Assembly: GCF_002854065.1 (NCBI RefSeq)
Contig: NZ_CP024147.1
Source of the DNA: Escherichia coli
GTDB lineage: Bacteria > Pseudomonadota > Gammaproteobacteria > Enterobacterales > Enterobacteriaceae
Reading direction: 5' to 3' (one strand)
Length of the DNA: 64,000 nt
Below, one piece after another: positions 2,812-36,922 of this stretch. Position 1 is the first letter of the stretch. The number at the start of each line of letters is the position of its first letter. Below the pieces are notes generated by a model that did no database searches, was not told where the DNA came from, and worked only from the letters and a program-made list of their open reading frames with translations. The position numbers and the translations under genes are program-made.

Positions 2812-3099
2812 ATGCGCGCGATCGGTAAATTGCCTAAGAGCGTGTTGATACTGGAATTTATCGGAATGATGTTGCTGGCGGTGGCGCTGCTGTCGGTAAG
2901 CGACTCCCTGTCGCTGCCTGAGCCATTTTCTCGGCCAGAAGTGCAGATTCTGATGATTTTTCTCGGTGTTTTGCTCATGCTTCCCGCTGCGGTGGTGGTT
3001 ATTCTTCAGGTGGCAAAACGTCTTGCCCCACAGCTGATGAACCGTCCACCGCAATATTCACGTTCAGAAAGAGAAAAAGATAATGACGCCAACCATTGA
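2812..3099 (+). CDS. ybjC: Small membrane protein YbjC (95 aa)
   Basis: ORF immediately upstream of and overlapping the nfsA start; synteny. Confidence 0.75.
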   Translation: MRAIGKLPKSVLILEFIGMMLLAVALLSVSDSLSLPEPFSRPEVQILMIFLGVLLMLPAAVVVILQVAKRLAPQLMNRPPQYSRSEREKDNDANH

Positions 3100-3805
3100 A
3101 CTTATTTGTGGCCATCGCTCCATTCGCCATTTCACTGATGAACCCATTTCCGAGGCGCAGCGTGAGGCGATTATTAACAGCGCCCGTGCGACGTCCAGTT
3201 CCAGTTTTTTGCAGTGTAGTAGCATTATTCGCATTACCGACAAAGCATTACGTGAAGAGCTGGTGACGCTGACCGGCGGGCAAAAACACGTAGCGCAAGC
3301 GGCGGAGTTCTGGGTGTTCTGTGCCGACTTTAACCGCCATTTACAGATCTGTCCGGATGCTCAGCTCGGCCTGGCGGAACAGCTGTTGCTCGGTGTCGTT
3401 GATACGGCAATGATGGCGCAGAATGCATTAACCGCAGCGGAATCGCTGGGATTGGGCGGCGTATATATCGGCGGCCTGCGCAATAATATTGAAGCGGTGA
3501 CGAAACTGCTGAAATTACCGCAGCATGTTCTGCCGCTGTTTGGGCTGTGCCTTGGCTGGCCTGCGGATAATCCGGATCTCAAGCCGCGTTTACCGGCCTC
3601 CATTTTGGTGCATGAAAACAGCTATCAACCGCTGGATAAAGACGCACTGGCGCAGTATGACGAGCAACTGGCGGAATATTACCTCACCCGTGGCAGCAAT
3701 AATCGCCGGGATACCTGGAGCGATCATATCCGCCGAACAATCATTAAAGAAAGCCGCCCATTTATTCTGGATTATTTGCACAAACAGGGTTGGGCGACGC
3801 GCTAA
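3083..3805 (+). CDS. nfsA: Oxygen-insensitive NADPH nitroreductase NfsA (240 aa)
   Basis: Recalled NfsA sequence (MTPTIELICGHRSIRHF...), 240 aa. Confidence 0.9.
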   Translation: MTPTIELICGHRSIRHFTDEPISEAQREAIINSARATSSSSFLQCSSIIRITDKALREELVTLTGGQKHVAQAAEFWVFCADFNRHLQICPDAQLGLAEQLLLGVVDTAMMAQNALTAAESLGLGGVYIGGLRNNIEAVTKLLKLPQHVLPLFGLCLGWPADNPDLKPRLPASILVHENSYQPLDKDALAQYDEQLAEYYLTRGSNNRRDTWSDHIRRTIIKESRPFILDYLHKQGWATR

Positions 3806-11841: not shown

Positions 11842-13944
11842 ATGTTTGCCAAATTCATAGATGTTATTCAAACGTTTTTAACTGAACCGGCAATTTTAAT
11901 TGGTTTGCTGGTGGGTATTGGTTATGCCCTTGATAAGAAATCGCCAATAAAAATTATTACCGGCATGGTCAGCGCCATGGTGGGATTAATGATGGTGTTA
12001 TTTGGTGGTTTCCAGTTTTCCGCAACATTTAAACCGGTAGCAGAAGCCGGGTGATGCTGCCAACTTACTGATTTAGTGTATGATGGTGTTTTTGAGGTGC
12101 TCCAGTGGCTTCTGTTTCTATCAGCTGTCCCTCCTGTTCAGCTACTGACGGGGTGGTGCGTAACGGCAAAAGCACTGCCGGACATCAGCGCTATCTCTGC
12201 TCTCACTGCCGTAAAACATGGCAACTGCAGTTCACTTACACCGCTTCTCAACCCGGTACGCACCAGAAAATCATTGATATGGCCATGAATGGCGTTGGAT
12301 GCCGGGCAACCGCCCGCATTATGGGCGTTGGCCTCAACACGATTTTCCGCCATTTAAAAAACTCAGGCCGCAGTCGGTAACCTCGCGCATACAGCCGGGC
12401 AGTGACGTCATCGTCTGCGCGGAAATGGACGAACAGTGGGGATACGTCGGGGCTAAATCGCGCCAGCGCTGGCTGTTTTACGCGTATGACAGGCTCCGGA
12501 AGACGGTTGTTGCGCACGTATTCGGTGAACGCACTATGGCGACGCTGGGGCGTCTTATGAGCCTGCTGTCACCCTTTGACGTGGTGATATGGATGACGGA
12601 TGGCTGGCCGCTGTATGAATCCCGCCTGAAGGGAAAGCTGCACGTAATCAGCAAGCGATATACGCAGCGAATTGAGCGGCATAACCTGAATCTGAGGCAG
12701 CACCTGGCACGGCTGGGACGGAAGTCGCTGTCGTTCTCAAAATCGGTGGAGCTGCATGACAAAGTCATCGGGCATTATCTGAACATAAAACACTATCAAT
12801 AAGTTGGAGTCATTACCCAGAAGCCGTAAGTAAAGCCTATGGTGTTCACGGATATTTAATGGATTCCTACGCAATGAAAGCGGCAACGCAAATTGCATTG
12901 GGGGATAATTTTGGTTATGTCGGGTATGTATTTGTACTGGCGTTTTTTACCAACCTGCTGCTGGTATTATTTGGTCGGTATACTGGTGCCAAAGGGATAT
13001 TTTTGACAGGGAATACCGGTGTTTCACATTCTCAGGCGGTATTATGGTTGATTGTCTTTTGGCTGGGTTTTAGCTGGACTACATCCATTATTATTGCCGG
13101 AATATTAACGGGTGTATTCTGGGCGTTCTTCACCACGCTCATTGTTAAGCCCATTGCCAAAGTTACCAAAGATGCCGGTTTTACCATTGCTCATAACCAG
13201 ATGTTGGGATTGTGGTTTTTCTCCAAATTCGCCCATAAATTTGGTGACCCTGAAAAGCACGATGCTGAAAACCTGAAACTTCCCGGGTGGCTGGCGATTT
13301 TTAACCATAACGTAACGGCTATCGCCATTGTGATGACGCTGTTTGTCGGTGGTTTCTTGCTATCAACGGGTATCGATAATGTCCAGTTAATGGCGAAAGG
13401 CAAGCCCTGGTACATCTATATCATCAACCTTGGCTTACAGTTCTCCATGTATATGGTCATTCTGCTGCAGGGTGTGCGCATGATGGTGGGCGAAATTAAC
13501 GGTTCGTTTAAAGGCTGGCAAGATCGCTTTATTCCTAACGCTATTCCTGCTGTCGATGTTGCAGCGCTGTTACCTTTTTCACCCAATGCCACAACGTTAG
13601 GCTTCGTCTTCTGTACTTTTGGCACCATTTTTTCGATGGGGATCTTATTACTGGTTCACAGCCCAATTATGGTATTGCCTGGCTTTGTACCTCTGTTTTT
13701 CTCTGGCGGTCCAATTGGCGTATTAGCAAACCGCATGGGCGGATACCGTTCCGTAATTATCTGTACGTTCTTGCTGGGTATTATTCAGACCTTTGGTACG
13801 GTGTGGGCTATTCCGTTAACCGGGCTTGCTGAAAATGGCGTCGGCTGGACAGGAATATTTGACTGGGCAACCGTATGGCCTGCTATTTGTGAAGTTCTGA
13901 AATTTATCGCTGCAACATTCCATCTTGGTCCTTACGCGGGTTAA
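11842..13944 (+). pseudogene. PTS ascorbate-family (UlaA/SgaT-like) EIIC, split by an IS1 insertion
   Basis: ORFs 11824..12054 and 12859..13944 both resemble UlaA; removing IS1 plus one TSD copy (777 bp) restores one in-frame ORF of about 441 aa; start codon 11842 vs 11824 uncertain. Confidence 0.8.
12050..12817 (+). mobile_element. insAB: IS1 copy 1 (768 bp) with 9-bp target-site duplication CAGAAGCCG
   Basis: Terminal inverted repeats ggtgatgctgccaacttactgat / ...aagttggagtcattacc; insA 12105..12380 and insB 12299..12802; identical 9 bp at 12041..12049 and 12818..12826. Confidence 0.95.
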
Positions 13945-33667: not shown

Positions 33668-34567
33668 TTACGCAGAGAAAAAGGCGATGAGGATCGGCAC
33701 TAACAGGCTAAGAATAAAACCGTGAACAATTGCCGCCGGGACCATATCCAGCCCGCCAGTACGTTGAAGAACGGGCAGGGTGAAATCCATCGACGTCGCA
33801 CCGCATAAGCCCAGTGCGGTAGAGCGGCTGCGGCGAATCAGCCCAGGGATCAACATAATTGCAATCAGCTCACGGGCCAGATCATTAAAAAACGCCGCGC
33901 TCCCGATTACCGGACCAAAAGATTCGGTCAATAAAATACCGGAAAGAGAATACCAGCCGAAACCAGAGGCCATTGCCAGCGCGGTATTGATGGGTAGATC
34001 AAGAATAAAGGCGTTAATTAAACCACCAATTAATGAACTGGCAACCACCACCACGGCGACAATCATTCCCCGGCGATTAAGGACAATCTGCTTTAAGGTC
34101 ATGCCATTATTGCGCAACTGAATACCGACGAGGAAAAGTAGCAGAATTAACGTGTATTCACTGGCTTCGGTCGCGTGTTGTAAGAAAGCCAGTCCACTCA
34201 GGCCAATGGCAAAACCAATCACTACTACGCCGCACAGTTTTAGCGACTCAAGCGCCATCGCAATACGCGACGGGAGTTTTTCTTGCTGATGGTGGTTGCG
34301 CCACGGCAGACCGCGCTCCAGCCATATAAGGGCGGCAATATTACACAGTAAAATAACGGTAATACTGACGGCAGAATAATGCAGAATCGCCAACAGGTTA
34401 CTGGCGAGGTTATCGAGAAACGCCAGACTGATACCCATAAAAAAGAGAATAAGGTAAACCATCCAGCTTAATAGCTGATTAATAACTTTTAACGCAGCTT
34501 GTTGGCGAAGCGGAATGAGGTAACCCACAATCAGGGGAACCAGAATGATTAACAGCCCAGAAAACAT
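33668..34567 (-). CDS. ybjE: Inner membrane protein YbjE / lysine exporter LysO (299 aa)
   Basis: Multi-pass membrane ORF; synteny. Confidence 0.85.
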   Translation of the reverse strand: MFSGLLIILVPLIVGYLIPLRQQAALKVINQLLSWMVYLILFFMGISLAFLDNLASNLLAILHYSAVSITVILLCNIAALIWLERGLPWRNHHQQEKLPSRIAMALESLKLCGVVVIGFAIGLSGLAFLQHATEASEYTLILLLFLVGIQLRNNGMTLKQIVLNRRGMIVAVVVVASSLIGGLINAFILDLPINTALAMASGFGWYSLSGILLTESFGPVIGSAAFFNDLARELIAIMLIPGLIRRSRSTALGLCGATSMDFTLPVLQRTGGLDMVPAAIVHGFILSLLVPILIAFFSA

Positions 34568-35024
34568 GAAAACCCAGCCCTTGCAAAGAAAGAAGTCGAA
34601 ATGCGCGATGACACACTACTGAAAGCGGAAGGACGAGTAAAGTTGCAATTAAAAGGAAATGTTATGCATCAGAGGGGGATTTTTAATTCTATATGAGTGT
34701 TTAGCATTGTTGCGCTCCTTTCATGTGCAATGCCATATAAAGCCACTGGCGCAGGGAGCGCGCAGGGGGCGGCCAGTCGCCGCCGCCCCCTGCACCCCCG
34801 GGCTCTGGCGAACAAAATCGCCGCTGCGCGGTACCTTCAGCTTATCCCCTTCGGCTACCGGGTCGGGCGCGAGGTAACGTCCTGTAAGACGCGCCCTCAG
34901 CCCACATCCATGTGGGCTGCCCCGGCCTTCAGGGAACGCCTCGGCGATTTTGACGCCACCAACATCCGTGCGGTTTGTAACGTCGAAGATAAAACAACCA
35001 GGGCAGATAAAATGCCAATGCTAA

Positions 35025-36497
35025 TTAATTACGTTTTTCCAGCAGGGTCCGGTAAATCAGACCACCGATAATGCCGCCGACAATTGGCACCACCCAGAAG
35101 AACCACAGTTGTTCTAATGCCCAGCCGCCCTGGAAGATGGCAACCGCGGTGCTGCGCGCCGGGTTAACAGAAGTGTTAGTCACCGGAATACTGATTAAGT
35201 GAATCAGGGTTAAGGCCAGACCAATAGCGATCGGCGCAAAACCTGCCGGAGCGAATTTGTCGGTTGCGCCGTGGATCACCAACAGGAAACCTGCACTCAA
35301 TACCAGTTCAACTACCAGCGCGGAAAGCATGGAATAACCGCCTGGTGAATGCTCGCCATAACCGTTAGGGTGATGCTGCCAACTTACTGATTTAGTGTAT
35401 GATGGTGTTTTTGAGGTGCTCCAGTGGCTTCTGTTTCTATCAGCTGTCCCTCCTGTTCAGCTACTGACGGGGTGGTGCGTAACGGCAAAAGCACTGCCGG
35501 ACATCAGCGCTATCTCTGCTCTCACTGCCGTAAAACATGGCAACTGCAGTTCACTTACACCGCTTCTCAACCCGGTACGCACCAGAAAATCATTGATATG
35601 GCCATGAATGGCGTTGGATGCCGGGCAACCGCCCGCATTATGGGCGTTGGCCTCAACACGATTTTCCGCCATTTAAAAAACTCAGGCCGCAGTCGGTAAC
35701 CTCGCGCATACAGCCGGGCAGTGACGTCATCGTCTGCGCGGAAATGGACGAACAGTGGGGATACGTCGGGGCTAAATCGAGCCAGCGCTGGCTGTTTTAC
35801 GCGTATGACAGGCTCCGGAAGACGGTTGTTGCGCACGTATTCGGTGAACGCACTATGGCGACGCTGGGGCGTCTTATGAGCCTGCTGTCACCCTTTGACG
35901 TGGTGATATGGATGACGGATGGCTGGCCGCTGTATGAATCCCGCCTGAAGGGAAAGCTGCACGTAATCAGCAAGCGATATACGCAGCGAATTGAGCGGCA
36001 TAACCTGAATCTGAGGCAGCACCTGGCACGGCTGGGACGGAAGTCGCTGTCGTTCTCAAAATCGGTGGAGCTGCATGACAAAGTCATCGGGCATTATCTG
36101 AACATAAAACACTATCAATAAGTTGGAGTCATTACCAACCGTTAGAAGCAAAACCGCTGGCTGCCGCGTCAAAACCCGTTTTACCACTGGCAATTAAATA
36201 CAGCAGCGCCGCTGCAACAATACCGCCGACAACCTGGGCAATTACGTAGCCAACGACTTCTTTTGCCGGAAAACGTCCGCCAGCCCATAAACCAATAGTG
36301 ACCGCCGGGTTAAAATGACCACCAGAAATATGACCAACAGCGAAGGCCATCGTCAGAACGGTCAAACCGAATGCCAGCGCCACGCCGGCAAAACCAATGC
36401 CTAATTCCGGGAAGCCTGCGGCCAGTACAGCACTACCACAGCCACCAAAAACAAGCCAGAAAGTACCAAAACATTCAGCTGCTAATTTTCTGAACAT
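35025..36497 (-). pseudogene. aqpZ: Aquaporin Z, interrupted by an IS1 insertion
   Basis: N-terminal part 36137..36497 ([13 protein letters not shown]... with NPA) and C-terminal part 35025..35368 (...second NPA...RTLLEKRN) on the minus strand, separated by IS1. Confidence 0.9.
35369..36136 (+). mobile_element. insAB: IS1 copy 4 (768 bp) with 9-bp target-site duplication AACCGTTAG
   Basis: Identical 9 bp at 35360..35368 and 36137..36145; insA 35424..35699, insB 35618..36121 with an R-to-S change. Confidence 0.95.
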
Positions 36498-36922
36498 ATC
36501 CACCTCAATTAAAAATTGACCCTGTGAAAAATATGGTCGTTTTATAGGGTCGTCGTAAAAAAGTGACGACGGAAATAATGCGCGGCTATTTTAAAAACGA
36601 AGGCGAGTCATTCACCAGATAAATAAATCCAGTAAATTTGATTTAGGGCAACAGCGGGTTGCCCCATATAGTCATTTGTCTGATTGACAGTGTAGTGCAA
36701 GCAAAAGATTTAATCCTTTAGGCGTAATAAAAAATAATTTATCATGCTAATTATTTGATTTTGTTGTTTTTGCAGACTTATCAGCAAGAGGGAGTATAAC
36801 GCGATTATTCGCTCATTTTTCAGACATTTGCCATGCTTAAATGTGATGTCATCACGTATTAGCAAGGCCTTTCCCGTTATACTGCCAGCGTAAAGGATAA
36901 GTCACATATTTCTGGAGGGGAT

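Follow-up and report, generated by a model that had tools for sequence, protein, structure and literature searches.

The TRIP1 repeat of Escherichia coli was found by Rudd in 1999, and each of its types occupies one fixed locus: TRIP1a lies in the ybjE-aqpZ spacer (915016-915281 in K-12), TRIP1c adjoins dusC, and TRIP1b, TRIP1d and TRIP1e are located at putP, alx-sstT and copA-ybaP (Li et al. 2024, PMC10888264). All types lie 38-96 bp after a stop codon, and recombination between TRIP1a and TRIP1c inverts 1.3 Mb (Li et al. 2024). Replication Risk Sequences (RRS) have been described as GC-rich repeats of 222 bp that flank dif at a distance of about 650 kb, the partners on the two sides of Ter being inverted relative to each other (Pham, Cox, Goodman and colleagues; 2023, 2024). 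They represent a recently recognised class of chromosomal signals that program single-strand gaps near the replication terminus. RRS serve as anchor points for RecA and SSB peaks, which lie on the lagging-strand template (Pham et al. 2023, 2024), and one of their strands carries a tract that can form a G-quadruplex (G4), GGGGGTGCAGGGGGCGGCGG, which blocks the polymerases Pol I, II and IV in vitro (Pham et al. 2024). They are active after transfer to other sites and change supercoiling genome-wide, and K-12 cannot lose both copies unless this is compensated by amplification of the insH7-insH8 interval or by the supply of other copies (Pham et al.). RRS copies that had been inverted by engineering in K-12 failed to produce a RecA/SSB peak in vivo, although the cells remained viable with them (Pham et al.), and in vitro the reverse orientation still leads to lagging-strand gaps, at a lower frequency and via a structure of the complementary strand (2026 preprint). 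Here, we compare with these repeats a GC-rich segment located between ybjE (lysO) and aqpZ in a stretch of 64,000 nucleotides from the E. coli contig NZ_CP024147.1 (assembly GCF_002854065.1), which is referred to below as the window.

The repeat between ybjE and aqpZ

The segment was originally noticed because it is far richer in GC than its surroundings, and the GC fraction is indeed 0.64-0.74 across 34700-34950 as compared to 0.38-0.47 on either side (100-nt windows). Its position was also given correctly, namely the spacer between the start of ybjE at 34567 and the stop codon of aqpZ at 35025, with both genes on the minus strand. The extent of 34740-34960 proposed at that time was too small, as alignment to K-12 delimits a conserved unit of 275 bp at 34707-34980, the sense (G-rich) strand of which is the minus strand of the window. 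This unit matches the copy in the lysO-aqpZ spacer of K-12 with 93% identity over 275 bp (E 1e-114; opposite strand), the K-12 repeat being 222-266 bp in length, and both the flanking open reading frames (ORFs) and the alignment identify the same neighbours as in K-12. The published G4 motif is present as an exact match on the minus strand (34799-34780); it occurs exactly once in the window and is absent from the plus strand, as in an RRS that carries it on one strand. The tract has the second-highest G4Hunter-type score in the window, which holds a single copy of the repeat. Judged by homology and locus, the segment is the already described TRIP1a repeat, or RRS-lysO. The original observation was itself correct, and the element is not of a new kind since its identity was already known.

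The view that the segment may be a dispersed repeat proved to be right, in the form of the published TRIP1/RRS family. Of the 5426 complete E. coli genomes, 5425 carry the sequence, at a median of 3-4 and up to 10 places per genome; for a core of 236 bp, the median is 3 and the identity 93-100%. The search for copies elsewhere and for conservation in the Enterobacteriaceae, which had been suggested as a check, extended the family to seven genera. Besides Escherichia, these are Klebsiella, Enterobacter, Kluyvera, Raoultella, Pseudescherichia and Pseudocitrobacter. Single genomes often carry several copies, and 13 places were found in one chromosome of K. pneumoniae. Further copies in K-12 are located in the yohP-dusC spacer and in the yegH-asmA spacer, the latter copy being truncated and diverged.

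Fold of the G-rich strand and variation among copies

All three stems that had been listed for the segment are present. The first one comprises 12 perfect base pairs, one more than the 11 listed (GCAGGGGGCGGC/GCCGCCCCCTGC at 34762-34773 and 34782-34793), the second is a perfect stem of 10 bp (CAGCCCACAT/ATGTGGGCTG at 34898-34907 and 34910-34919), and the third a stem of 7 bp (GGGCGCG/CGCGCCC at 34865-34871 and 34890-34896). A long-range stem that was missing from this list pairs CAAAATCGCCG (34813-34823) with CGGCGATTTTG (34942-34952), thereby enclosing the last two hairpins. As RNA, the minus strand (291 nt) has a minimum free energy (MFE) of -145.4 kcal/mol, as compared to -121.4 +/- 4.7 kcal/mol for 200 dinucleotide shuffles, none of which folded as well (z -5.07). 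Little difference was seen between the two strands when they were folded as DNA (-79.9 and -78.0 kcal/mol; z about -5.0 each), which fits the report that the C strand is also active (2026 preprint).

Read along the sense strand, the fold includes a core (34804-34960) that resembles the Rfam family TwoAYGGAY in having a long closing helix around two hairpins with GGA loops; it was recognised by a sub-threshold match to RF01731 and by our covariance model R1, both of which are described below. The 5' arm of the closing helix P1, UGGCG-UC-AAAAUCGCCG (34942-34958), pairs in the MFE fold with the 3' arm, CGGCGAUUUUG-UU-CGCCA (34806-34823), in agreement with covariation and with an inverted repeat (I1). 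Within the core, hairpin 1, CAGCCCAC-AUGGAU-GUGGGCUG (34898-34919; inverted repeat I5), presents the loop AUGGAU. It is followed by hairpin 2, GGGCGCG...ACAGGAC...CGCGCCC (34865-34896; inverted repeat I12), whose loop ACAGGAC has lost one G from the family loop ACAGGGAY. Beyond the core, a G-rich hairpin with a stem of 12-14 bp, GUGCAGGGGGCGGC/GCCGCCCCCUGCGC, and the loop GGCGACUG was identified as an inverted repeat (I3) and in the folds (34760-34795); the G4 motif is located at 34780-34799. The terminal hairpin (34712-34761; inverted repeat I11) consists of GCGCUCC (34755-34761), a variable loop and GGAGCGC (34712-34718), and the element ends beyond it with ...GGAGCGCAAC. All of these features are on the minus strand.

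The plus-strand ORF at 34697-35071 (124 aa), which had been dismissed in the original prediction, does exist; we also rejected it as a gene, together with two shorter ORFs, because of the absence of Pfam matches and the presence of frame-breaking 1-nt indels between copies. A tiny ORF that follows a strong Shine-Dalgarno-like AAGGAG at the 3' end of the element (12 codons here; 9 and 3 in the K-12 copies) was likewise rejected, since the copies from Klebsiella and Enterobacter lack its ATG and a covarying hairpin uses GGAGCGC as its 3' arm.

A scan for the pattern of hairpin 1 in one genome per species gave 53 loci; the sequence L036 was rejected as a family copy since it represents a chance hairpin near tRNAs. 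48 distinct enterobacterial copies were aligned (alignment A4) and folded with RNAalifold, which resulted in a consensus of 63 pairs, 20 of them with compensatory changes. Standard pairs occupy 98.6% of the cells as compared to 91.1% in column shuffles, with none of 500 shuffles reaching the observed value, and changes on both sides of a pair were found in 236 cells where 68.9 were expected. When the partners were slid by 1-3 columns as a control, pairing fell to 35-44%. It should be noted that the 48 copies are related and that the alignment tested here is also the source of the structure. Real selection on the fold is nevertheless favoured by the slid controls and by the large number of independent pair types.

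In the closing helix P1, 7 of the 13 pairs show compensatory changes, with switches between C-G and U-A, G-C and C-G, and A-U and C-G. The loop of hairpin 1 is invariant in 48 of the 48 copies, and one pair of its stem is either A-U (21 copies) or G-C (27 copies). Hairpin 2 has compensated stem changes and mostly the loop AGGGAY, which is replaced by AUGGAU in Kluyvera and a relative, and by ACGGAC or AUGGAC in some Klebsiella copies. The terminal hairpin (helix 12) covaries as well (GCGCUCC/GGAGCGC, GCGCUCU/AGAGCGC and GUUCAC/GUGAAC). G-U or U-G combinations were found in 76 cells as compared to 5 cells with A-C or C-A, which indicates that the fold is maintained specifically on the G-rich strand, in line with the experiments that point to this strand.

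In every copy, the G4 tract represents the 5' arm of a perfect hairpin of 12-14 bp with an 8-nt loop. The variants of the two arms are compensated, GUGCAG/CUGCGC alternating with GUACAG/CUGUGC, and GGGGGCGGC/GCCGCCCCC with GGGGGAGGA/UCCUCCCCC, GGGGGAGGC/GCCUCCCCC and GAGGGCGGC/GCCGCCCUC. A diverged subfamily with CCAGGGUGGUGG/CCACCCUGG has lost the exact G4 motif and kept the hairpin. For a G-quadruplex, there would be no need for the C-rich arm to covary, and it appears that the hairpin is under selection. What appears to be selected is a fold of the G-rich strand into several hairpins, with the 'G4' tract as one arm of a conserved hairpin. The G-runs of the main subfamily are also conserved and, therefore, compatible with a G-quadruplex.

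The copy in the yegH-asmA spacer of K-12 (NC_000913.3, about 2139499-2139659; 3500-3660 of locus L057) belongs to a diverged 'subfamily B' of RRS/TRIP1-like elements and is not among the TRIP1a-e loci of Li et al. (2024). It is truncated at its 5' end and lacks the exact G4 motif, while the hairpins are kept. Full-length forms of subfamily B, with both GGA-loop hairpins, are present at the loci L010, L038, L041 and L046 and in some Escherichia genomes. The K-12 remnant lies inside the insH7-insH8 interval (2102912-2288976), which is amplified in survivors lacking both RRS.

In Enterobacter sp. ENT03, seven copies of a dimer were found (L018-L024, for example at about 7960-8620 of L020), each consisting of an inverted subfamily-B-like element and a subfamily-A element. 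Their similarity ends at both outer edges, which suggests that the dimer spreads as one unit. K. pneumoniae has two direct copies in tandem, 437 bp apart (3015-3171 and 3452-3608 of L003), and in Raoultella terrigena a truncated copy is directly followed by a full copy (208-346 and 359-517 of L045). Copies that are near-identical to those of Klebsiella or E. coli were also found in metagenome-assembled genomes (MAGs) assigned to Desulfacinum (L005), Sporobacter termitidis (L025) and Proteobacteria (L013); these most likely result from contamination of the bins.

Orientation and the proposed role in replication

hcp, ybjE and aqpZ are all located on the minus strand of the window in a gene order collinear with that of K-12, and the left flank of the element is collinear with K-12 at 97% identity while the 275-bp block matches the reverse strand. 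Among the 5426 complete E. coli genomes, 894 were found to have the same arrangement (80% or more of a 431-bp query that includes both flanks). Such inversions are a known natural polymorphism: 3448 forward and 1255 reverse copies have been counted among 4703 copies of TRIP1a, and 2952 and 2789 copies in the two orientations of TRIP1c (Li et al. 2024). The reverse orientation does therefore not exclude membership of the TRIP1/RRS family.

The GC skew of the plus strand is +0.032 over the window, and 6 of 8 bins of 8 kb have a positive value. The leading-strand sequence of E. coli, which is the template of the lagging strand, is marked by a positive GC skew. The plus strand would therefore be the lagging-strand template and the G-rich minus strand the leading-strand template, and the window copy is, by inference from GC skew, a natural 'reverse' allele of RRS-lysO. 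Thus, the K-12 arrangement, with the G4 strand as the lagging-strand template, does not apply to the window copy, as judged from GC skew and the inverted alignment. Such a natural reverse allele provides a test of the published model, in which the lagging-strand template must be the G-rich strand.

Between the conserved flanks and the core, the two orientation alleles are strongly diverged (34670-34706 and 34981-35024 compared with 2960-3009 and 3285-3355 of locus L001), and weak similarity is seen when one of them is reverse-complemented. The window allele lacks the terminator hairpin of aqpZ in K-12 (GGCCTGACATTACGCCAGGCC followed by a T-run). Divergence of the inner flanks from K-12 is too strong for an old inversion to be told apart from an independent insertion. 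A local inversion via flanking inverted repeats was considered and rejected, because the only pair that brackets the element is a 9-bp repeat at chance level (TTAGCATTG/CAATGCTAA at 34701-34709 and 35016-35024).

Taken as a whole, these observations are probably best explained by TRIP1a/RRS-lysO being a DNA element that acts when the duplex is unwound, through the published gap mechanism. Identity, orientation, fold and covariation are derived from our analysis, whereas gap formation and the role in topology are taken from the literature. According to this mechanism, the G-rich strand of the unwound duplex would fold into a very stable structure, described as a G-quadruplex, which would block DNA polymerases. 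Where the G-rich strand is the lagging-strand template, the replisome would skip the obstacle and leave a post-replication gap of up to about 2 kb, onto which SSB and RecA would be loaded. Such gaps have been proposed to relieve topological stress at the Ter macrodomain's edges. The reverse allele of the window would be expected to behave differently, giving rise to fewer gaps through the weaker fold of the C-rich strand.

Several points weigh against this explanation. The inverted RRS of K-12 gave no RecA/SSB peak, so that the window copy may be largely silent as a gap trigger, and the function in topology is a hypothesis of the RRS authors rather than a demonstrated mechanism. The core resembles a motif that is filed by Rfam as an RNA, and covariation does not distinguish folded single-stranded DNA from RNA. 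Furthermore, the direction of replication was deduced from the GC skew of only 64 kb, and the distance to dif and the partner RRS lie beyond the view of the window.

As for the neighbouring genes, ybjE (lysO; 33668-34567, minus strand) is a 299-aa ORF that lies downstream of the element on the minus strand and is collinear with K-12 lysO (b0874). On the other side, a 3' fragment of aqpZ (35025-35368, minus strand) ends at a distance of 45 bp from the element. The gene is interrupted by IS1 (35369-36136), with the ORF fragments 35025-35330 and 36132-36503 on either side of insA and insB. Further left ends of IS1 were found at 12050 (plus strand), 15084 (minus strand) and 22662 (plus strand); four IS1 ends per 64 kb represent an unusually high density, as in Shigella-like genomes.

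TwoAYGGAY, rival explanations and known systems

A covariance-model search of Rfam, which had been proposed as a check of the segment, gave TwoAYGGAY (RF01731) as the best match, on the minus strand at 34813-34958, with 28 bits and an E-value of 0.062 as compared to a gathering threshold of 43; other enteric copies reached 30.6 and 33 bits. The curated threshold is not reached and, therefore, we do not file the RRS core as a member of TwoAYGGAY. Thus, of the original suggestion of a structured RNA element, 'structured' is upheld by covariation, while 'RNA element' is not shown, with no Rfam family at threshold. Of the two loops, that of hairpin 1 (AUGGAU) fits the AYGGAY pattern, and that of hairpin 2 in the window copy reads ACAGGAC. 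TwoAYGGAY has been listed as a probable RNA (Weinberg 2010) and proposed to bind CsrA (RMfam), and in the literature mentioning TwoAYGGAY we found no link to RRS or TRIP1.

The resemblance was also found in the reverse direction. The scan for hairpin 1 matched three contigs of Lachnospiraceae, two of which carry true TwoAYGGAY RNAs (72-79 bits) that share a 22-nt hairpin, CAGCCCACAUGGAUGUGGGCUG, exactly with the enteric hairpin 1. The covariance model R1, which was built only from 41 enteric cores and gives 172 bits on the window core, finds the three Lachnospiraceae elements over their full length (41.6, 37.4 and 32.4 bits; rough E-values of 1e-5 to 1e-8), while the hairpin alone reaches only 14-20 bits. 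The aligned features comprise the closing helix, an AAGGC element, hairpin 1, the sequence GAG, the GGA-looped hairpin 2 and a CG...GCC closure. The enteric P1, which covaries, aligns with the Lachnospiraceae P1 despite a different sequence. On the basis of these models, the RRS core may be regarded as a TwoAYGGAY-like variant in its mode of working, or at least in its fold.

The Lachnospiraceae elements, which are from MAGs (about 747-1207 of L050, 4162-4621 of L051 and 1376-1839 of L035), lie at the centre of imperfect palindromes of 460-620 bp that are 81-84% alike between contigs. In two of the three, a G-rich tract (G4Hunter-type score 1.9-2.4) is located just past the 3' end of the conserved unit, and in L051 it is mirrored by a C-rich tract upstream of the unit. 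This setting of TwoAYGGAY resembles that of a DNA repeat or a MITE (miniature transposable element with inverted repeats) more than that of a simple small RNA gene.

A wider proposal, which we regard as tentative and on balance doubtful, combines these views: the RRS/TRIP1 core and TwoAYGGAY, including that of Clostridia and other gamma-proteobacteria, would form one structural class, the obstacle to polymerases would be the covarying hairpins rather than a G-quadruplex, and the yegH-asmA copy might aid in the rescue of cells lacking both RRS. If this were true, the TwoAYGGAY motifs outside the enterobacteria would be DNA elements for replication gaps or cruciforms that have been misread as RNAs, the Lachnospiraceae palindromes having G-rich arms; alternatively, RRS elements would also make a CsrA-binding RNA. 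The covariation of hairpins on the G-rich strand, the link to TwoAYGGAY and the diverged sixth locus may refine the view of how RRS act, and the side results could guide the search for RRS analogues outside the enterobacteria.

The match to TwoAYGGAY raises the question of an RNA function, in which a minus-strand transcript, as an enterobacterial variant of TwoAYGGAY, would clamp a CsrA dimer with its two GGA-loop hairpins and serve as a sponge or a cis-acting site. The CsrA/RsmE consensus reads (A/U)CANGGANG(U/A) or RUACARGGAUGU, and the sequences of hairpin 1 (CACAUGGAUGUG) and of hairpin 2 in its family form (UACAGGGAUGU) agree with it, which is a lead and not a test. The proposal of RMfam, the rank of TwoAYGGAY as the best Rfam match on this strand in the window and other copies, and the full-length matches of R1 in Lachnospiraceae point in the same direction. 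However, the scores are below the gathering threshold, there are only two GGA sites, the second of which has lost one G in the window copy, and the orientation relative to the neighbouring genes flips between strains. The excess of G-U over A-C would fit a single functional strand, but it is also expected of a folded G-rich DNA strand. Moreover, a scan of 34450-35150 revealed no promoter-like or terminator-like site, and dusC and ybjE are marked 'No' in the gene tables of CsrA CLIP-seq (cross-linking and immunoprecipitation with sequencing), with no signal on neighbouring genes, so that the element does not have the transcription signals and the many GGA sites of a CsrA-sequestering small RNA. 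The effects of RRS at the DNA level have been shown experimentally (Pham et al.; 2026 preprint), and we consider a role as RNA to be quite improbable. A function confined to the 3' end of aqpZ, as a transcription terminator, an insulator or a REP-type structure that stabilises the mRNA, appears very improbable indeed. It would fit the location of all TRIP1 types shortly after a stop codon (Li et al. 2024) and the start of the element 45 bp after that of aqpZ in an allele that lacks the K-12 terminator hairpin. Yet, the terminator scan detected no stem followed by a T-run in the element region, both orientations occur behind aqpZ and dusC, the element shows no similarity to REP/BIME, and RRS work as a replication obstacle at ectopic sites (Pham et al.).

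It is likewise improbable, if somewhat less so than an RNA role, that the element represents in the main a non-autonomous, selfish mobile repeat of a MITE-like or similar kind, with a structure that serves its own spread and replication effects that are a by-product. Such a repeat could account for the variable copy number (1 to 10 per E. coli genome, and 13 places in the K. pneumoniae chromosome), the tandem copies in Klebsiella and Raoultella, the polymorphic orientation at one locus, the repeated palindromes around the Lachnospiraceae relatives, and the head-to-head dimer of about 700 bp at 7 loci of Enterobacter sp. ENT03, where similarity stops at both outer ends. Nonetheless, neither terminal inverted repeats nor target-site duplications were found: the ends of the element, ...CCGCACGG (5') and GGAGCGCAAC (3'), are not inverted repeats, and the seven ENT03 junctions show no target duplication. 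The candidate terminal repeats GTTCCGTTCAC/GTGAACGGAAC were rejected because they proved to be an arm of the terminal hairpin in a subfamily-B copy that is inverted and joined head-to-head. An origin from phages or plasmids was rejected as well, as no phage carries the repeat and the 'plasmid' matches are mostly megabase records of E. coli or Klebsiella, that is, mislabelled chromosomes. A layout like that of TnpB/IscB guide RNAs, with a conserved scaffold and a variable 3' flank, was dismissed for want of a nuclease gene, a match to the Rfam family HEARO, or a phage or insertion sequence context. No associated transposase was found, each TRIP1 type is at one fixed locus in E. coli (Li et al. 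2024), and at least one RRS copy is conditionally essential in K-12 (Pham et al.).

Among known systems, REP/BIME, ERIC, BoxC and MITEs share with the element that they are GC-rich, palindromic, intergenic and multi-copy, often just downstream of genes. It differs from them in sequence, in its much greater length (about 275 bp), in its branched fold, in its low copy number with a median of 3, and in the lack of terminal inverted repeats and target-site duplications; a match to the REP-derived naRNA4 adjoins one copy and is not located inside it. The small RNAs CsrB and CsrC (Rfam clan CL00106) also present GGA in hairpin loops, and Rfam places TwoAYGGAY in the same clan. However, they have about 9-22 GGA sites as compared to two in the element, which matches CsrC with only 8.6 bits and for which neither a promoter or terminator of its own nor support from CLIP-seq on the neighbouring genes was found.

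TwoAYGGAY itself (RF01731; Weinberg et al. 2010) shares with the enteric core the long closing helix, the hairpin with an AUGGAU loop (22 nt in exact agreement with Lachnospiraceae members) and, immediately following GAG, a second hairpin whose loop reads A-N-GGA-Y. The enteric form has additional inner helices, a small hairpin and a 3' domain of two further hairpins, and its second loops are mostly AGGGAY as compared to the AYGGAY of TwoAYGGAY. Furthermore, a role at the DNA level is based on experiments for the enteric form, whereas TwoAYGGAY has no tested function. The closest relative of the window copy is the RRS/TRIP1a repeat of K-12. The window copy is distinguished from it by its inversion relative to the flanking genes, by its immediate flanks, with the K-12 terminator hairpin of aqpZ being absent, and by the 1-nt deletion in the loop of hairpin 2. 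The two copies have in common the locus, a sequence identity of 93%, the exact G4 motif and the predicted double-Y fold.

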